DNA of 22,343 bases from a virus. Position numbers and translations under genes: made by a program. The stretch is taken from the UHGV virus genome UHGV-0208881; one strand, 5' to 3'. Under the pieces are notes generated by a model. It was not told the origin of the DNA. It saw only the letters and a program-made list of their open reading frames with translations, and did no database searches. Shown here piece after piece: positions 2 to 20,779 of this stretch. The stretch's first letter is position 1. Every line of letters begins with the position of its first letter.

Positions 2-37
2 AATAAGCAACCTCCTCTGTTAGGAGGTTGCTTATTA
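2..37 (-). terminator. Perfect 16-bp inverted repeat (stem TAATAAGCAACCTCCT, 5-nt loop) about 30 nt downstream of the tailspike stop; probable end-of-late-operon hairpin, with any U-tract lying beyond the window edge
   Basis: Read directly: bases 1-16 are the exact reverse complement of bases 22-37. No T-run follows on the plus strand; the minus-strand tail is outside the window. Confidence 0.4.
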
Positions 38-68: not shown

Positions 69-2486
69 TTACAATGTAATGTTTTGCGGCATGTCTGTAT
101 TCGCCTTATTTGCTGCTGGGTACTGGCATGTAGCAGTCGAATTTGTTGTCGAGTTATCCCCGAACCACAATTTGTTCTGTGACGCTATCCCTGACACTGC
201 AGATCCAGAGCACTGAATGACGTTAATTGCATCCTTAAACATGTTGTCAGCAATTCTGATATTCTCATACTGTGAAAGCCATGGAGTTGCTCCATCATCT
301 ATCAGCATTGTTGCATTTCCTGCCGTTCCAGGGGTAGATGATGATATATAGTTTCTAGAAAATTCTGCATAACTAGTTCCTGTTGCTTTTGATACCCCCG
401 TTTGTAATTGATCAAACAAAAAACCGCCTATCTGGATGTTGCCTCTTACAATAAGGGACCTTGGTGTATATCCTGCCGGATGGAATTTAACAACTCGAGT
501 GCCACAATTATAGAACTTGTTTTCTATAAAAGAAGCAAGGCAATTTGATGAGCACTTAATCCTGATTAAAGATGGTCCATTTGTGAACTCATTTCCTGTT
601 AATGAAATAAAATTCATTAAACCGACATTAGTGGATGTCATAACATCAATGAATGGCATTAAGGAAAAACCTGAGTAATAAGAAACTTTGTTATCTATTA
701 CTCTTAGCTCTGTTGCTGCCGATCCTGTTGCAAAGTTGATATTTGAAATATTGCAATTAGATATTTTTATTCTATTAAAATTTCCAACAGCGGCAAAACC
801 AACTGATGATGTTGAGTCAGATCTAAGTGTTGCACCATTGAATTCAATGCCACTGTTTGATGATATGTTTGATGAATCTTGAGCAAACATGAATGTTGTT
901 CCAGTAGTGGCAATTACCCCGCCAATTATCTTAAATTCACAATTGCTCATTTGCGCGTAATTGGTCATGAACAATGGTGCTATCATAGTGTTATTATTAA
1001 GTGATATAATAGCAGACTCAATAACAACACCAGGAGTCCCAATTAACATAATGCGATCATAAGCTCTGATGGTGTTACCAGAAGCAACAAGAGATCGCAT
1101 CCACCCTGTATCTATCCAAGGAGTTGTTGATGTACCAGGTACAATATGAATGCCAACACCTTGAGTTTGTATATTATTTCCAGAGACAGTAATCTGCCCC
1201 CAAGGAATATTTCCGTTTGATCCTGGCATATCAAGAACAATTGCGTTATCTAAAACGTCAATATTGTTACCTATAATTGATAAACGTGTAAATCCACAGC
1301 GACCTTTTATACATCCATTGCCTCTGGTATTAACTCTATTCTTCAGTGAGTTTCCAATTACAGCGATATCTTCAACCAAAGCTCCCTCGCCTGTTGCATC
1401 CCATGTGGCTCCAGCGGTGTACACAGCGTGATCATACCATCCATCCATTGAATTGCCTTGGATGCGAATATTGCGCATATTGCCACCGATGCATGATCCA
1501 GGTGAGTCATAGAACACGCAATCAAATATCAGAACGCCACCGAGTGAGTATCGGTGATCAGACCAAGTGACATTAGGCACTTGTGTTTTAACCCCATCAG
1601 GGGTGTTGTCATATGGTTCAGCGTTTGTCGGACATACATCTATATATCGTGTTTGGTCAGGAATAGATGTACCTGAGCCAGAAGCACCAACCTCCATGTT
1701 TCTGGCATTTCCATCAAATCTTAGGCCGTGAATAGAGATGCTTCCAGTTGCTCCTGACGCAACCAGCAAAATATTTGAACGGTCCTGGTTAGGGTCAATA
1801 TCTGTAGTTGAACCTGTTACAAAATGTGACCGCTGACTTCTGACGAGCGTTGCCCCTCCATCACCCCAAATAGATGTGCATCCTGTCCATACGTTTACCT
1901 TTGCATCAAACACATAGTCTCCAGGAGGGAAAAATACACCACAACCTTTTTCTGCTGCCTCATTAACAGCGAGTTGAACAGATGCGTTGACGTATTTAGT
2001 TCTATCTCTTGCAAATACTGATGCCATTTCATCATCAGTCATATATTTTGTAGCCAGAATACTTGGTGTCTTCTCTACATATTCATCAAGTGTTCCATAT
2101 CGGGTGTTTACAAGAGAACCATTGCCATTAGCTAATTCAAGGCGCAACTGGTCAGGATCGTATTTCAGTACATTAGGATAATAGAACTGCTGTGCCCCGT
2201 ACGCATCATAAACAGCCATAGAATGGCCTTGCACAGTTACGAACTTGGCAATCTGCCCGTTATATACAGGATATCCTGCAGCGTTAATGATGATTGGTTG
2301 CGAAACAGGAACGTGAGAACCATCTTCGTTCTCTATATAAACCTGAATCTGGTTTTCAGGATTTACCGGGTCAGTGTCAATTTTACCGATATAAATTTTT
2401 CCATTGGCTACGGCTTTAAAAGAACGCGCCATAGTGAAGAGTTGCGAAGGCATACTCACTACAACATTGGCTGTAATGTCTGTCAT
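69..2486 (-). CDS. Tailspike protein: P22 gp9-like head-binding N-terminal domain (about 115 aa) fused to a different right-handed beta-helix (pectate-lyase-like) receptor-binding/glycanase domain
   Basis: 805-aa ORF. N-terminus [11 protein letters not shown]...VLKYDPDQ matches remembered P22 tailspike head-binding domain; remainder is rich in GN/IxGN repeats typical of beta-helix tailspikes and does not resemble the P22 endorhamnosidase body. Last gene of the operon. SD GGAG upstream of ATG. Confidence 0.85.
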
Positions 2487-5044: not shown

Positions 5045-6382
5045 TTACTGCCCCAAAGATGGAAGATATCCGTAGCGATTAATGAAGTCGATTGACAGCT
5101 CGGGGTGCTGCTTCAGGTAATCTATAGAAGCCTGAGGCGCTTCCACTCGCTTGATACCGTTTTGCTGAACGTACTTACCAACCGCCTCATTACGCTTCTG
5201 GTTGAGCGTGTTCAGGATGACGCCAGCGTTGCGACGAAAGGACTCCTCGCTCTGCGAGTTCTGCAGCGAACCAACAGCCTGGTCGAGCTTTTTGCCCTCG
5301 GCATCAGAAAGTGCGCCCATGCCTCGCATGGCCTGAACCGCTGTCAGGTATGCTTGTGATTTAAAGGTATCAAGTCGTGCCTGAGTGTCTGCAGCCTGTG
5401 AGCCTGGAACGTTGGGGATTACTCCGCGTAAGCCTGTAATGCTCTTAAGTGAAGGAGAACTAACGATATCGTTCAGAGTGAACATGCTGGTTGTGAGGGT
5501 GTTGATGCCGTCTTTGTAGCCATCATTTAGCGCTTGCTGCTTCTGCTGCAACTGCTGGTTGTTGGCTGCTATGCGGCTCTGTATTTCCTGGCGCTTCAGG
5601 TCGTTAGTTTCTGCTGATAGCATCCGGTCAAGGCGCTTATTTTCGTTGTTAATGCGGTTTGTTTCTGCGTCCAGATTAATGCGCTGCTGACCTAAATTCG
5701 CCTGGATATCTTGTCCGCGCATTGTGATTGCCTGATTCCGAGCGGCGGTTTGCGAATCCAGATCCTGACCGCGCATGGTAACCTGGCGACCCTGCATTTT
5801 ATCCTGTAGGTCAAAGTATTTTTCGGGCCCGAGACTGTTCATCCCCAGGTGATCGACAAATTCGCCGAACTGCCGCGGGTTCTGTTGGTACATCTGAGCG
5901 ACGTCCTGAGGATTAACGCCAACACGAGCTAACTCACCGGCGTTGTTTTGCAGCCATGATTGCATTGCTTCTGGAGACGATGACGCAAGGCGAGCGCCAG
6001 CCGCTAAGGTGCCTATAGAATTGCGTTGGTCTTCGTCTGCCCACTTCATACCAGACTGAATCTTCTCTAATTGACGAGGATATTTGGTCATCAGATCTCG
6101 CACCTGCTGTCGATCACCGGACTGGATGGCTGCCGCATATTCTTTTTGGAATGCAGCATCCGCTTCCTGTTGCTTTGCGGCTTGATATGTTTGAGCGACA
6201 CTACCAAGTCCCTGCAACGCCTGAAGGCCGATGTTATTGCGACCTGAACGCTCCATTTCGTTGTTCTGGCGAATATAGGCCAACGCCTCACTTACATCAC
6301 TTGCCTTTGGCGCATTTGAGTTTTGCCCACCGATACCAGCAAGAAAACCGCCTGAGTTGATTCCTTGTTGCCAAGTAGCCAT
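5045..6382 (-). CDS. Ejection protein, P22 gp20-like
   Basis: 445-aa ORF in the conserved gp7-gp20-gp16 position; Q-rich coiled-coil-like sequence with an internal TMRGQD(L/I) repeat; start adjoins the stop of the downstream gene. Confidence 0.8.
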   Translation of the reverse strand: MATWQQGINSGGFLAGIGGQNSNAPKASDVSEALAYIRQNNEMERSGRNNIGLQALQGLGSVAQTYQAAKQQEADAAFQKEYAAAIQSGDRQQVRDLMTKYPRQLEKIQSGMKWADEDQRNSIGTLAAGARLASSSPEAMQSWLQNNAGELARVGVNPQDVAQMYQQNPRQFGEFVDHLGMNSLGPEKYFDLQDKMQGRQVTMRGQDLDSQTAARNQAITMRGQDIQANLGQQRINLDAETNRINNENKRLDRMLSAETNDLKRQEIQSRIAANNQQLQQKQQALNDGYKDGINTLTTSMFTLNDIVSSPSLKSITGLRGVIPNVPGSQAADTQARLDTFKSQAYLTAVQAMRGMGALSDAEGKKLDQAVGSLQNSQSEESFRRNAGVILNTLNQKRNEAVGKYVQQNGIKRVEAPQASIDYLKQHPELSIDFINRYGYLPSLGQ

Positions 6383-7066: not shown

Positions 7067-7520
7067 TCTTTAGCTCCTCGTATTTTGAGCGCGGTAACTG
7101 ATAAATCGTGATGCCTACAGGCTTTCCATTGCTGGTATAAGCATCATCAAGGTGACCAACACGGGTAGCGCCAAGCAAACGGATAATTGCCCGTCCGTAT
7201 TTCGTGGTGTCAGGAACCATGGTGATGCTGTTAAGGAATGGTGAGTTTTCGAGAAGCCATTTGCAGAATAATCGATGCCCTTGCAGTGCATATTCACCAC
7301 GGAATCCGGGGTCGTACACCGCATGGCATTCAACAACGCTATGCCAGAAGTTACGCACTTCATGAACTCCAGCCAGCACTAATCCTTCGTAGATGCCGAG
7401 ATATACCGCATCAGTCTTGATGTAGTATTTGTCTCCACTGTCTACGATATTTCCCGTGTTTGCCGGGTTGTTGAGGAATTCTGCAAGCTTCACCGGGTTA
7501 TCGATGAGCTTTATGTGCAT
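7041..7520 (-). CDS. Head/tail assembly protein, P22 gp14-like
   Basis: 159-aa ORF in the conserved position between the needle gene and the ejection-protein genes; start overlaps the upstream stop (TAATG). Confidence 0.75.
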   Translation of the reverse strand: MHIKLIDNPVKLAEFLNNPANTGNIVDSGDKYYIKTDAVYLGIYEGLVLAGVHEVRNFWHSVVECHAVYDPGFRGEYALQGHRLFCKWLLENSPFLNSITMVPDTTKYGRAIIRLLGATRVGHLDDAYTSNGKPVGITIYQLPRSKYEELKNVNFPDCQ

Positions 7521-8221: not shown

Positions 8222-9639
8222 TACTCAATCCTTATCTGGCAGCCAGACAGAGTTACAGGTGACTTCGTGATAACGCGCAATTTGAAGCCGACATTTTTCC
8301 TGATGCGCCCTACTCGCTTCCACAAAACACGCTTGTCGTAAACGAACGGTTCATTCTGCTCAATCATCTGCTCACGACCGTAATTGATGCCGTCAGTGGT
8401 TGCAGAGAGGAACAGGCGGTCAGCGTACTGCGCAACACCAGTCGATGATTCCAACTCCAGATCAAAGCATCTGGCGTTATCCGCTTTGAACAGTGGAGTA
8501 AACAGCAGGTGTTCTTGCTGTAGCCCATACTGGCTGCTGATATCGAACTGCAATTTCCCGGTCACGGATTCCAGCTTATCGCCGCACGTTATCTGATTGC
8601 CTTCGTAAATGAAGTCGATAGCGCGGTACACATCGTCATACAGGCCTGTTTTCAGCACACACCATTGCGGACCATTGGCACTTGAAGATGCGTCGTATAC
8701 GAGGACATGGCGCGGAAGATGGATAATCAGCAACTCATGCGCATCAAATCTCAGAGACTCCATCACGCCATCAGCCAGTTCATCAGCAGTGTAGGAGCGT
8801 AGTATTTTCTCAATACTCGCGCTGGCGATTGGTGATATCTGACCGGAGCCGATGATGTATACAGATGGCGCACCTGTTGCCGGATTGCTGATGAACGCAT
8901 ACGAATCAGCGAACGGTGTTTTGCAGTAAGTCCCGGCAATACCTTTCTGCACCATCAACGATGGCTGGGCGACATACAAAGCAGCACCAACGGTGGTTGC
9001 GCCAGTCAGGGAGAAATACTCAATCGTCGATGAACCAAAGCAGACGATGAAGTCTCGCCATGTGCCGATGCCGATGATGCCGTCAGGCTGTGATTCTGCC
9101 CGATATTGTGCGCTGTAGCGGTCAGGATGCGATTCGTCTTCAAGGTCAGTGATAAACCATGAATCAGTGCCGTCTTTTGACCACGCATAACGCCCACGTA
9201 AGCGAGTAATGTCACGAACAGAACCTAACTCATACTGCGTGAATCCGCTGTCTGTAGGCCAGTTTGAGACGGTTTTAACCGTGCCATCATAGCGATACTC
9301 GACCAGTTGACCATTAACGCCTACCGCCTGTGATGTTCGACCATGCGCCATTGATACGCGACCACTTCCGGCAACATCGCCGACTTCACTTTCTCCTTTG
9401 TAGAGCTTGCCACCACACACGCGATAAACAGCACTCTGTGCCATGTTGTACTCGACGCCGCGAGATACACCGTTCACATCAGAACGTTTGGCAATGCCCG
9501 GGAATGAGCGAAGATATCCGCTGCTGTTAAGGATTTCTTTGGGGGTTGCCAGCATATTCACTGGCAGATAGTCGATATAGTCGGCGTTTCGGAAGTCTTT
9601 ACCGACACCTTTCATAAGCGGAAGTTGCTGAATCGGCAT
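8221..9639 (-). CDS. Tail hub / head-completion protein, P22 gp10-like
   Basis: 472-aa ORF (same length as P22 gp10). N-terminus [49 protein letters not shown] matches remembered gp10. Confidence 0.85.
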
Positions 9640-10139
9640 TATTCGCTCCCGTTATCGCAAGGTTCCTTTCGGTGGAAGTAATTCCAACCGTTCCACTTCG
9701 CCAACTGATTACCGCTACCAATAGGCATACGGTTTGGATAACCGGACTTACATTTAGCGGCTTTTGCTCTGTCCATTGCAGACAGTTTGACGAGTCGCTC
9801 TTTCCCGTATCTGGCAGTGGTTATAAGTTTTGCAGACGCTTCCAGCGCATAATCTGGAGCAATGCGGCAGGCAAGGTTGAAAATGACGGCATTGATAGCG
9901 TTATTTGACAAACCGTGCTCATCGCCAGGATCCGGAGCGACATCTGCATCAGCGAAAATGTAGCCAACGTTGATACCAGGTGACGCATCACCTCCAAGCC
10001 ATTCAGCCATCATCATTTCAAGGTCGTTGACGCCGTCTTCCATGGACTGCGGTTCGACATCGGTTAACGTGGCATTTGATGCCACACCGAGCTTACGTAA
10101 TGCCGCAAGGACTAAATCACCCTTCGTTGTCAGGTTCAT
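9639..10139 (-). CDS. Tail accessory / head-completion protein, P22 gp4-like (start taken at internal Met, 166 aa)
   Basis: ORF track gives 9639..10208 (189 aa), but the Met at 10139 ([21 protein letters not shown]...) gives a 166-aa product matching remembered P22 gp4 length and N-terminus. The upstream ATG has no usable SD. Confidence 0.8.
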
Positions 10140-10347
10140 CTGCTGCCGCCTTAGGTTTTCGACCAGGCTTTTTACGCTGTTTTTCTTCTGGCTCTGGCTC
10201 TGCAACATCCTTCAAAAGGTCATCAGGATGTGAAAACCAGCCAGCATCCAGATATTCCTGAAGCTCTTCGGCTTTCACGATTTCAAAGTCGTAGCCAACG
10301 CCTTTCCACTTCTTCATGTCGCCATGACGAAAGATCATGTGTGTCAT
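10117..10347 (-). CDS. Small hypothetical protein between coat and gp4 (about 76 aa from the SD-supported Met), highly charged K/P/E-rich C-terminal tail
   Basis: ORF track 10117..10395 (92 aa) runs through the coat-gene terminator hairpin. The ATG at 10347 ([10 protein letters not shown]...) has GGAGA 5 nt upstream. C-terminus [27 protein letters not shown]. 3' end overlaps the gp4 start by 23 nt. Confidence 0.4.
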
Positions 10348-10360
10348 GCTTGTCTCCAGA

Positions 10361-10384
10361 TAAAAACGGGAGCCGAAGCTCCCT
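10361..10384 (-). terminator. Intrinsic terminator / attenuator just after the coat gene stop
   Basis: Minus strand reads GGGAGC-TTCG-GCTCCC (perfect 6-bp GC-rich stem, UUCG tetraloop) followed by G-TTTTT-A, a few nt after the coat TGA and just before the next SD. Confidence 0.6.
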
Positions 10385-10391
10385 CTGGTTA

Positions 10392-11687
10392 TCACGCAGT
10401 CTGGTTAGGCAGACCAACACCAATTGCCTCTGGCCGTACAGCACATGCTGAATACCACACAGCAATACGGCACTTACCAGACAGAGTATTGATATCACCC
10501 TGCGTTGCGAAGATGCCGTTAACACCAATACCAGGAATGCTGAAGGAAGACGTTTTCATGCCAGCAAACAGTTCATGGGTTACCGGAATCGGCTGAGACA
10601 GCAGGCGGATTGAGTCATCAGCCCAGAACACGTTAGCGGTGGTTGTTGCCACGTTCAGAACGTTTACCGGAGTGGAATCAGCAAGAGAGGTGTTTACGTT
10701 AGCGTAAGCCTTCTCTTCTTTTGTCAGTGAAGAGTCATCAAGCGCAATCGGTTTCGGCGTGATTTCGATGTGAGTACTATCGATCACACGGGTGATTGAG
10801 AAAGTCGCATCATCAGTCAGCACGTTCTTCGCCATCTGAGACAGGAATTTCACACCAGTGAAGCTGATTTTGTCGCCGCGCTTAAATCCGGTGGTGGAGG
10901 ATACGGTCACCGTTGCAACACGGTTGTCGACGTTCTCCTTGTTACCATCGGTATCAAGGGTGTATGCCTGCGGCTTAAACTTCTGCGCTCCAGACACAGT
11001 TACACCAGTAGCGGTTGACTTGGTAACTGCCGGAAGTTTCGGTGAGCGAAGAATTTCATCAAAGCCAGCAATCTGACGCTGAATAGTACCGTTGCGATAC
11101 GCTTCTTCAGGAACGCGCCCAAAGATGTCACCATCTACCAGGTTGCGGCCTGCTTTGCGGTAATCGTCAGGGTTCAGGAAGTAACTGATGCCCATGTCGC
11201 GGTTTAGCTCACGGGAGAACATCAGGCGCTCTGCATCAGACACAAAATCCCAGCCAGACAGGCCAGTAGATGGACCAATTGCGCGGGTATCGTGAACAAC
11301 AAGCGAGCCCATTTCAGTTGCCTGTTTGGCAATCGCTGACTCAATGTTATTCGCCAGTTTTTTGGCGGATGCCTGGATGCGGCGACGGTAAGAACGCTCA
11401 TCACGCAGGTCATCTGCACGAAGCTCGAAGAAATCGTTATCCGGATCGCCCATGTTGCATTTCACGGAGAGTTCCAGAATCCCGGTTGCGTTGCCAGTTA
11501 AATCCCAGCCAGTCTGGGTTGGCGCTTCCTGCTCAACAGGCATCCACACGGTGTTGCTTGAACGCTGCATGGATTCTGCCGGAGGGGTGTATTTTGTCAC
11601 TTTGGACGCCATTGGCGTCAGGTTCTGGACGGTTTCGATGATTTCATCCAGAGCATACGTGACCAGTTGACCTTCATTTAATGCCAT
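10392..11687 (-). CDS. Major capsid (coat) protein, P22 gp5-like
   Basis: 431-aa ORF (P22 coat is 430 aa). N-terminus [10 protein letters not shown]...DEIIETV and C-terminus [13 protein letters not shown] match remembered P22 coat. Start overlaps the scaffold stop. Confidence 0.9.
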
Positions 11688-17523: not shown

Positions 17524-18066
17524 TTAATTAGTGAGTCCGGGGATTATGGTTTGCCCGTGCTGTTCAAGGCGTTCAATTCTCGCCAGTAGCTGAGGCTTCT
17601 TAATTTTTCCCCAGCGATTAAGCAGTCGACCTGACATGCTGGCAACATCCTTCTCTTTCATGTACTCCAGCATTACGGCATTTCTCTCTTCTTCAAATTG
17701 ACGATGACCAACCTGAAGCATGGCGTACATCCAGTTAAATGCGTTGATGTAAGCAATTTTGATACGCATTGCTTCTTTTTTGGTGTAGGACATAACCAAA
17801 AGCATCAACCCATCCTTGCGGAGACGGTAGAATTTTTGCGGCTTACCATTCTGTAACTCATTGTTTTTATAGCAAAGCTCAAAGTTGAGCTTTGTATCAA
17901 ACTCAGGAGGGCAAGCTTCTATGGTTCGTTCAATGTCACGAACTACGTTCTTCGGCAGCTTTCCAAATGCTTTTGCCACCATAAAAGAATCTGTAACCGG
18001 ATCGTTGTTTGCCACAAAAATCAGATCTCGGAAATCAATGCCGTTAACGATAGTTGGATAATGCAT
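17524..18066 (-). CDS. rha: Rha-family phage regulatory protein (antirepressor-like)
   Basis: 180-aa ORF. Motifs VTDSFMVAKAFGK...NVVRDIE and KDGLMLLVMSYTKKEAMRIKIAYINAFNWM fit the phage pRha domain consensus as I remember it. Sits between Rz and terminase, as P22 Rha does. Confidence 0.8.
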   Translation of the reverse strand: MHYPTIVNGIDFRDLIFVANNDPVTDSFMVAKAFGKLPKNVVRDIERTIEACPPEFDTKLNFELCYKNNELQNGKPQKFYRLRKDGLMLLVMSYTKKEAMRIKIAYINAFNWMYAMLQVGHRQFEEERNAVMLEYMKEKDVASMSGRLLNRWGKIKKPQLLARIERLEQHGQTIIPGLTN

Positions 18067-18210: not shown

Positions 18211-18238
18211 CATAAAAAAGCCCCGCATCGCGAGGCTC
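18211..18238 (-). terminator. Intrinsic terminator downstream of the lysis cassette
   Basis: Minus strand reads AGCCTCGCGATGCGGGGCT (8-bp stem including one G-U pair, 3-nt loop) followed by TTTTTTAT, about 30 nt after the Rz stop. Confidence 0.55.
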
Positions 18239-18269: not shown

Positions 18270-18707
18270 TTATTTCAGGCACTGAGTCCTGATGTACTCC
18301 TGTAGGTAGTTAACCTGCGCGGTTATCCTGTCGATTCCACTTCGGAGACGGTAATAATTGAGTTCAGCATCTGCTGTAAGTCTTGGGCTTTCTCCATCGC
18401 CCATGCCGCTGGCTCCGGTCGTTGACTTTGCACAGGTGGCGGCGACTTGCAGGCGCTTACGCCCAGCAGAAACATCAGCACGGAGACTTTCGATAGTCGC
18501 GTTAGCATCAGCAAGCTCCTTTGTGTATCTGGCGTCGAGTTCTGCTACGTCACGTTGACGCTCCTGCATGTCAGCGATTATGGATGTGGCTTTATCGCGC
18601 TGCTCTTTGTAGGTCATGGCGTTATCACGGTAATGATTAACAGCCCATGACAGACAGACGATGATGCAGATAACCAGAGCGGAGATAATCGCGGTTACTC
18701 TGCTCAT
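18270..18707 (-). CDS. Rz: Rz-type inner-membrane spanin (i-spanin), 145 aa
   Basis: N-terminus [30 protein letters not shown] (TM segment) as in lambda Rz / P22 gp15; start overlaps the R stop (ATGA). Beyond about residue 35 it differs from lambda Rz as I remember it, and the 145-aa length equals P22 gp15. Confidence 0.85.
18323..18514 (-). CDS. Rz1: Rz1-type outer-membrane lipoprotein spanin (o-spanin), embedded in the +1 frame of Rz
   Basis: 63-aa ORF wholly inside Rz in a different frame; signal peptide [22 protein letters not shown] with lipobox ending in Cys, then a Pro-rich mature region ([13 protein letters not shown]). Confidence 0.75.
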
Positions 18708-19507: not shown

Positions 19508-19884
19508 ATTTGCTCTATTTAATTAGGAATAAGGTCGATTACTGATAGAACAAATCCAGGCTACTGTGTTTAGTAATCAGATTTGTTCGTGACCGATATG
19601 CACGGGCAAAACGGCAGGAGGTTGTTAGCGCAACCTCTTGCCACCCGCTTTCACGAAGGTCATGTGTAGAAGGCCGCAGCATAACTATCACTGATGAATT
19701 CAGGATAGCCAGTGGCTACGGCTCAGTTTGGGTTGTGCTGTTGCTGGGCGGCGATGACGCCTGTACGCATTTGTTGATCCGGTTCTGCTTCCGGTATTCG
19801 CTTAATTCAGCACAACGGAAAGAGCACTCGGTGCATTTAAGCCAAGCCCCATAAGGGAGAATGCTCTTACCTGTTGCACAGATA

Positions 19885-19941
19885 TAAAAAATCCCGAAAC
19901 CGTTATGCAGGCTCTAACTATTACCTGCGAACTGTTTCGGG
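19885..19941 (-). terminator. tR'-type intrinsic terminator of the short pR' transcript
   Basis: Minus strand CCCGAAAC...GTTTCGGG (with inner GCAGG/CCTGC stem) followed by ATTTTTTAT, about 194 nt downstream of the pR' start as in lambda. Confidence 0.7.
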
Positions 19942-20078
19942 ATTGCATTTTGCAGACCTCTCAGCCTGCGATGGTTGGAGTTCCAGACGATACGTCGAAG
20001 TGACCAACTAGGCGGAATCGGTAGTAAGCGCCGCCTCTTTTCATCTCACTACCACAACGAGCGAATTAACCCATCGTT
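19885..20078 (-). ncRNA. Lambda 6S-type short late leader transcript (pR' to tR', about 194 nt)
   Basis: Bounded by the pR' -10 at 20085-20090 (start about 7 nt downstream) and the tR' U-tract; sequence matches the lambda pR'-tR' region as I remember it. Transcript ends are inferred. Confidence 0.55.
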
Positions 20079-20113
20079 GGGTCAAATTTACCCAACTTTA
20101 TTCAATAAGTCAA
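20060..20113 (-). promoter_or_regulatory. Late promoter pR' with Q-utilisation (qut) site
   Basis: Minus strand TTGACT (-35, 20113-20108), 17-bp spacer, TAAATT (-10, 20090-20085), then TGACCCAACGATGGG pause region; matches lambda pR'/qut layout, about 40 bp downstream of the Q stop. Confidence 0.8.
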
Positions 20114-20155
20114 TATCATGCCGTTAATATGTTGCCATCCGTGGCAATCATGCTG

Positions 20156-20779
20156 CTAACGTGTGACCGCATTCAAAATGTTGTCTGCGATTGACTCTTC
20201 TTTGTGGCATTGCACCACCAGAGCGTCATACAGCGGCTTAACAGTGCGTGACCAAGTGGGTTGGGTAAGGTTTGGGATTAACATCGTCACAGCGCGATAT
20301 GCTGCGCTTGCTGGCATCCTTGAATAGCCGACGCCTTTGCATCTTCCGCACTCTTTCTCGACAACTCTCCCCAACTGCTCTGTTTTGGCTATATCAACCG
20401 CACGGCCTGTACCGTGGCAATCTCTGCATCTTGCGCCCGGCGTCGCGGCACTACGGCAATAATCCGCATAAGCGAATGTTGCGAGCACTTGCAGTACCTT
20501 TGCCTTAGTATTTCCTTCGAGCTTTGCCACACCACGGTATTTCCCCGATACCTTGTGTGCAAATTGCATCAGATAGTTGATAGCCTTTTGTTTGTCGTTC
20601 TGGCTGAGTTCATGCTTACCGCAGAATGCAGCCATTCCGAATCCGGCTTGTGATTGTGCCATCCCCATAGCAGCCATCACATCAGTACCGGAAAGAGAGT
20701 CAGAAGCCGTGGCCCGTGGTGAGTCGCTCATCATCGGGCTTTTTGGCGAATGAAATTTAGCTACGCTTTCGAGTCTCAT
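20156..20779 (-). CDS. Q: Late-gene antiterminator Q (lambda type)
   Basis: 207-aa ORF MRLESVAKFHSPKSPMMSDSPRATASD...CRDCHGTGRAVD...CGRCKGVGYS...; essentially identical to lambda Q as I remember it, including the zinc-binding Cys cluster. Confidence 0.95.
   Translation of the reverse strand: MRLESVAKFHSPKSPMMSDSPRATASDSLSGTDVMAAMGMAQSQAGFGMAAFCGKHELSQNDKQKAINYLMQFAHKVSGKYRGVAKLEGNTKAKVLQVLATFAYADYCRSAATPGARCRDCHGTGRAVDIAKTEQLGRVVEKECGRCKGVGYSRMPASAAYRAVTMLIPNLTQPTWSRTVKPLYDALVVQCHKEESIADNILNAVTR

Follow-up and report, generated by a model that had tools for sequence, protein, structure and literature searches.

The DNA analysed here, a stretch of 22,343 nucleotides from the viral genome UHGV-0208881 (hereafter the window), corresponds to the late region of a P22-like (Lederbergvirus) prophage whose nearest coliphages are IME10 and CurroJimenez_Bas106, at approximately 98% DNA identity, and every gene in it is located on the minus strand. 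The coat (major capsid) gene of the P22 gp5 family occupies positions 10392..11687 and encodes 431 aa that are 73% identical to P22 gp5 (Pfam PF11651, P22_CoatProtein, E 1.8e-165); its stop codon TGA at 10394-10392 is followed by an in-frame TAA at 10391-10389. The gap of 44 nt between coat and the next gene contains, on the transcribed strand, a hairpin GGGAGC-UUCG-GCUCCC (10368..10383, minus strand; 5' arm 10383-10378, loop 10377-10374, 3' arm 10373-10368) that begins 8 bases past the coat stop, a tail G-UUUUU-AUCU (10358..10367, minus strand) and, as read from the sequence, a Shine-Dalgarno motif GGAG (10354..10357, minus strand) located 6 nt upstream of the ATG at 10347. This ATG opens a 76-aa ORF (10117..10347, minus strand) that is a homologue of P22 orf69 (BLASTP E 3e-11) and belongs to PHROG 1175 (phrog_1175, E 1.4e-37), a family of unknown function; the same ORF is a CDS in the annotation of phage CurroJimenez. 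Its 3' end overlaps by 23 nt the start (10139) of a gp4 homologue, a head completion or tail accessory factor (9639..10139, minus strand; Pfam PF11650, P22_Tail-4, E 1.3e-58), which is the first virion gene dependent on read-through of the hairpin. Further downstream are gp10 and the tailspike, the latter with a Pfam head-binding domain, and the other downstream ORFs may be read, from their size and order, as the remaining late genes of P22.

Two features of the 76-aa ORF and its surroundings were also observed. First, an in-frame (CAGAGC)n repeat at 10191-10202 (minus strand) encodes (Glu-Pro)n and is present in 2 copies in the window, 2 in CurroJimenez and 8 in IME10; the change in length preserves the reading frame, which fits an orf69-like ORF that is translated. 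Second, a mosaic joint is present immediately 3' of the U tract (window positions 10347-10367, minus strand; loci L003-L171), such that one and the same hairpin can precede either a short orf69-like (PHROG 1175) or a long orf186-like (PHROG 3769) ORF, in window-type as well as P22-type coat lineages.

The element has the anatomy of an intrinsic terminator. The original prediction of a perfect 6-bp stem, a UUCG loop and a U5 tract between the coat stop and the next Shine-Dalgarno motif was borne out on the minus strand, and the predicted span of 10361-10384 takes in the stem and the U run. All six pairs of the stem are perfect, five of them are G-C, and a C-G pair closes the UUCG loop. The U5 tract is indeed found at 10366-10362, but the G at 10367, located between the stem and the U run, had been overlooked; the tail G-UUUUU-AU therefore contains 6 U among its first 8 nt with a G at the first position, compared with the U-rich tract of about 7-9 nt that adjoins the stem of a typical intrinsic terminator, and most relatives carry a U at 10367, extending the tract to U6. 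The free-energy calculation proposed along with the prediction gave -10.8 kcal/mol for the isolated core hairpin, and the whole gap between coat and the next gene folds at -16.7 kcal/mol (z = -3.4). The description of the terminator as strong was thus overstated, as the core reaches only -10.8 kcal/mol and the G at 10367 both shortens the U tract and removes a 2-bp extension of the stem. A bidirectional terminator was also considered, since the record of phage L annotates both strands at this location, and was rejected for the window: the plus-strand flank TCTGGTTA contains 4 T in 8 without a T run, and the site is absent from the plus-strand terminator scan.

The occurrence of such a hairpin by chance is unlikely. 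Under strict criteria (a stem of six perfect pairs, five or more of them G-C, around a loop of 4 nt, with five or more T among the 8 nt that follow), exactly one match was found on both strands of the window, and this match is the post-coat site; dinucleotide shuffles (500 in number) gave 0.04 matches per window on average, and any match at all was obtained in 3.8% of them. A looser terminator scan returned 25 candidates against 20.2 expected, with no overall enrichment, and the post-coat site is the third one listed. No match at gathering thresholds was obtained in an Rfam scan of the whole window. The idea of a dispersed or REP-type repeat was rejected, as no second copy of the hairpin is present in the window even when 3 mismatches are allowed, and an inverted-repeat scan adds nothing nearby.

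Upstream of the hairpin and on the same strand are the gene for a lambda-type antiterminator Q of 207 aa (20156..20779, minus strand; Pfam PF03589, E 1.4e-56) and the late promoter PR' with the 6S RNA leader and tR' (19884..20113, minus strand). PR' reads TTGACT-17-TAAATT (TTGACT at 20113-20108, TAAATT ending at 20085), and tR' forms a hairpin at 19941-19893 followed by a U tail. The segment comprising Q, PR', qut, the 6S leader and tR' (19884-20779) is 98.2% identical in DNA to lambda 43886-44795, and the presence of this lambda-like cassette inside an otherwise P22-like virion module is typical of lambdoid mosaicism; phage L, by comparison, has a Q of the phage 21 type (PMC8022706). From P22 (PMC8022706) and from the absence of promoter-like sites, we infer that one promoter drives the late operon. 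The late region contains fewer sigma-70-like promoter matches than expected (7 vs 18.7), and the promoter scan revealed none between the hairpin and gp4. Because virion genes are located downstream and no promoter-like site separates the hairpin from gp4, polymerase must read through the hairpin, and Q-loaded polymerase is the obvious means of doing so. The part of the original prediction that invoked read-through by Q-modified polymerase is therefore backed, as to the need for read-through, by the lambda-type Q context and the promoter-free gap. The part proposing that termination sets a step down in dosage after coat is weakened by the report that Q-lambda forms a nozzle at the RNA exit channel, precluding formation of the terminator hairpin (PMC9388147), so that termination by late complexes may be slight.

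Another good terminator-like hairpin was observed at 18218-18238 (minus strand), with 9 pairs, 6 of them G-C, followed by UUUUAU. This hairpin is located just after Rz (18270-18707) and ahead of a Rha-domain gene (17524-18066) that stands between the lysis and terminase genes, and from its sequence it would be one more terminator within the operon for Q-loaded polymerase to pass.

The post-coat hairpin is an already known, annotated element of P22-like and other lambdoid phages. The curated P22 record (BK000583) contains a stem_loop at 6102..6119, immediately downstream of gene 5, and notes that its location is similar to that of stem-loops in HK97 and lambda; in Sf6 (AF547987, 6147..6173) the element is named "t coat" and annotated as a likely transcription terminator stem-loop; in HK620 (AF335538, 25827..25853) it is "tGP5", a consensus termination sequence after the major capsid transcript; and terminators are annotated at the same spot in phage L (MW013503, 6356..6392). 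In the paper describing epsilon34, terminators are defined solely by similarity to P22. The P22-like phages share the strand and the layout of coat stop, hairpin, U-rich tail and Shine-Dalgarno motif of a small ORF before gp4, and the gene order coat, hairpin, small ORF, gp4 is the same in P22, L, Sf6, HK620 and CUS-3. The build is also shared, a G-C stem of 5-7 bp with a tetraloop that is often UUCG: the P22 element is GGGGC-UGCG-GCCCC-UUUCUUUAU, L and CUS-3 carry GGGGC-UUCG-GCCCC, and Sf6 and HK620 carry GGGGC-UUAC-GCCCC. The window stem GGGAGC/GCUCCC differs from the GGGGC/GCCCC of these annotated relatives, and the identical 16-nt hairpin GGGAGC-UUCG-GCUCCC is present in Proteus phage Brookers. 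Outside the P22-like group, lambda carries AUGGCCC-UUCG-GGGCCAU directly after E (J02459, about 7163-7180), followed by the U-poor tail UGUUUCUCU, and HK97 has an annotated putative terminator with a GNRA loop at 5192..5213 after gene 5. In both phages, as in the window, a G-C tetraloop hairpin is located between the major capsid gene and the next Shine-Dalgarno motif in a Q-antiterminated late operon; however, because the capsid genes of lambda and HK97 are unrelated to that of the window and the hairpins are not alignable, this likeness is a positional analogy rather than demonstrable homology.

The conservation of the element was examined in 80 IMG/VR loci from each of four coat lineages (window-type, P22-type, Sf6-type and CUS-3-type; 320 loci in total), some of which share coats only about 25% identical. 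A hairpin with a T-rich tail was found 4-17 nt past the coat stop in about 317 of the 320 loci; the three exceptions are L112 (short stem and A run), L326 (a stem mutation) and L219 (contig edge). In L112, which has a P22-type coat, the stem is shortened and AAAAAA replaces the T tract (GGGGCTTCGGCCCAAAAAATATTT), which reflects either a mistake in sequencing or assembly or a phage able to do without the terminator tail. Within lineages, the stem is near-invariant while loop and tail vary, and in the 80 close, window-type relatives the GGGAGC/GCUCCC stem is invariant; the loop variants are UUCG, UGCG, UUAG, UUUG, UUCU, UUAC, UUCC and UACG. Between lineages, the stems differ yet still pair (GGGAGC/GCUCCC, GGGGC/GCCCC, GGCGGGG/CCCCGCC and GGGGCC/GGCCCC). 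A post-coat hairpin with a T run was also found in six phages that are more distant but have P22-type coats (Pseudomonas AH02, Sortsne, Kosakonia Kc166B, ST231, IME_EC2 and Manatee Spring virus), and no post-coat hairpin was found in Ralstonia RSK1, where the coat stop is overlapped by the following gene. Purifying selection acting on an RNA hairpin at the post-coat position would leave just such a pattern.

Against this background, the window carries a rare allele. The base after the stem is U in 76 of the 80 close relatives, giving tracts of U4-U7 (U6 in 60 of them), and in 75-76 of the 80 the stem can be extended by 2 bp to GAGGGAGC/GCUCCCUU, with a free energy of -13.7 vs -10.8 kcal/mol in the window. 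The G at the first tail position is present in the window and in 1 of the 80 IMG/VR relatives (L044); therefore, only the 6-bp core (-10.8 kcal/mol) and U5 remain. The genome of E. coli AH21A060 (NZ_CP196291) matches the window at 100% over the 401 bases searched around the hairpin (10100-10500), so the G at 10367 is a real but rare allele. Since the U residues proximal to the stem matter most in intrinsic termination, termination at the window copy is expected to be weaker than is usual in the family. A d'Aubenton-Carafa-type score, used qualitatively, falls from about +33 to -6 with the G allele; this drop is not decisive, because the proven lambda tR' scores lower still and is also negative.

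What such terminators do has been discussed for phage L, in which their roles are described as "not known" and two possibilities are offered, namely partial termination or the stopping of non-antiterminated transcription (PMC8022706). The original prediction, a step down in dosage with read-through by Q, is essentially this hypothesis. A search of the literature revealed no transcript 3' ends or coverage step at the post-coat site for any P22-like phage: the P22 small-RNA paper lists no RNA ends at the coat 3' end, and the accessible part of the BTP1 prophage transcriptome paper does not mention a post-capsid terminator.

Herein, with moderate confidence, we propose that the element is a leaky terminator and also a cap that stabilises the scaffold-coat transcripts, adding a step in mRNA dosage to translational control. 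From the observed anatomy, strand, position, conservation and Q context, we infer termination, its efficiency, the stabilisation and an effect on stoichiometry, the element being the window's version of the terminator-like stem-loop found at the end of the procapsid genes, scaffold and coat, of P22-like phages. First, the whole late operon would be transcribed from the lambda-type PR', and polymerase loaded with Q at qut would pass tR', the post-Rz hairpin and the post-coat hairpin, such that gp4, gp10, gp26, the ejection proteins and the tailspike can be made. Second, the post-coat element would act as a leaky intrinsic terminator at which a minority of late complexes might release in the U run around 10366-10360, and essentially all polymerases not loaded with Q would release there. 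Third, transcripts that end by termination or trimming would retain the compact UUCG hairpin at their 3' end, where it might shield the scaffold-coat message from 3' exonucleases. The net result would be more mRNA ending after coat than downstream mRNA, which would add to the translational control of coat and minor-protein amounts. In the P22 virion, coat and minor proteins differ 30- to 100-fold, a difference too large for a leaky terminator alone.

Several lines of evidence bear on this proposal. The T-rich tail, needless for a pure exonuclease barrier, is kept in every lineage, which argues for real termination; on the other side, the tail could be kept as an A/U-rich translation enhancer before the next Shine-Dalgarno motif, the nozzle formed by Q-lambda may make termination by late complexes negligible, and the G-allele copy, with its first-tail G and 6-bp stem at -10.8 kcal/mol, is weakened. 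Dosage control by termination at this position is known elsewhere: T7 has the T-phi terminator after gene 10 (major capsid), and Ff phages have a terminator after gene VIII. As in the window, these terminators, leaky or strong, are located right after the most abundant structural gene, and they lower the dosage of downstream structural transcripts; in T7, inefficient terminators balance expression (PMC9163698). However, T-phi acts on the single-subunit polymerase of T7 and the Ff phages are without antitermination, whereas it is a Q-modified host polymerase that transcribes the window, and this modification should suppress termination; the dosage effect is a measured one in T7 and Ff and a proposed one in the window. 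In E. coli, transcripts upstream of strong terminators were about 2.2-fold more abundant than those upstream of weak ones (PMC11696848), and this association was counted in favour of the combined leaky terminator and stabiliser.

The same gain upstream of strong terminators also fits a purely stabilising role, in which the element is an mRNA-stability element and Q-loaded polymerase reads through essentially completely. Endonucleases would cut in the A/U-rich tail or further downstream, and 3' exonucleases would trim back to the UUCG hairpin, resulting in a long-lived scaffold-coat mRNA and faster-decaying downstream segments, so that dosage would be set through differential stability and not through termination. 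We consider this explanation possible but rather unlikely. The blocking of terminator hairpins by Q-lambda complexes (PMC9388147) is consistent with it, and so are the 98% identity of the Q cassette of the window to that of lambda, the stem being the most conserved part of the element, the poor U tract of the lambda hairpin after E and the tolerance of a G at the first tail position in the window allele. Stabilising intercistronic hairpins are well established, including the malE-malF REP in the malEFG operon, the puf operon of Rhodobacter and papA. As in these systems, a hairpin after the product needed most would bar 3' exonucleases and give segments of unequal stability; unlike them, the window hairpin is not a dispersed repeat and carries a terminator-like U tract. 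That tract speaks against pure stabilisation, since a barrier needs none and nearly all lineages, even those with unrelated flanks, have kept a T-rich tail. In a bolder form, which we entertain tentatively and would sooner doubt than believe, the element is no terminator of lytic growth at all, being instead a convergently evolved device for mRNA segmentation, with full read-through and the hyperstable tetraloop hairpin fixing the 3' end of a processed and long-lived scaffold-coat message. If this were true, lambda, HK97 and P22-like phages would all set the ratio of capsid to minor proteins post-transcriptionally by the same trick, and the natural test alleles would be the first-tail G of the window and the A-run tail of L112.

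An insulating role, corresponding to the second possibility raised in the phage L genome paper (PMC8022706), appears improbable. In this case the element would keep non-antiterminated transcription out of the head-completion, ejection and tailspike genes by stopping Q-less starts, e.g. spurious ones in the prophage or in early infection, and would be irrelevant to Q-loaded late transcription. A life spent mostly as a prophage (the region is present in 217 of 5426 complete E. coli genomes) and a late operon punctuated by intrinsic terminators at tR', after Rz (18238..18218) and after coat are consistent with insulation. However, it leaves unexplained why the post-capsid position is conserved across unrelated capsid genes, including those of lambda and HK97, and the depletion of promoter matches described above leaves little to insulate against. 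A translational element, in which the hairpin and an outer CCAGA/UCUGG helix set Shine-Dalgarno access for the orf69-like gene, and for gp4 by coupling, and uncouple the orf69-like gene from the heavy ribosome traffic on coat, is very improbable: the minimum free-energy fold of the gap (-16.7 kcal/mol, 96% of the ensemble) does pair 10388-10384 with 10360-10356 and cover the first two bases of the Shine-Dalgarno motif, and the small ORF does overlap the gp4 start, but the outer helix is broken without compensation in the close relatives L048, L056 and L005, and P22 and Sf6 lack it, such that it was rejected as a conserved mask and the translational role was discounted, and in several lineages the conserved G-C hairpin and U tract are not next to the Shine-Dalgarno motif (gaps of 54-94 nt).

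The element carries little weight as a discovery; as a post-coat stem-loop it has been part of the annotation of P22, Sf6, HK620 and L for about two decades. The comparative set gives clean natural variants for experiments that tell apart termination, stabilisation of the message and mere insulation by terminators within Q-antiterminated late operons: the element is present almost everywhere, its stem does not vary whereas loop and tail do, and the window has a rare weakened allele.

At the far end of the operon, the tailspike gene (69-2486, minus strand; 805 aa) resembles P22 in the head-binding domain at residues 1-113 only, and the remainder of the protein beyond these residues gave no Pfam match at E <= 0.001. 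Approximately 35 nt past the tailspike stop (69), an 11-bp hairpin, AAGCAACCUCC / GGAGGUUGCUU, was observed at 5-33 (minus strand), which is probably the end-of-operon terminator with its tail lost at the edge of the window.
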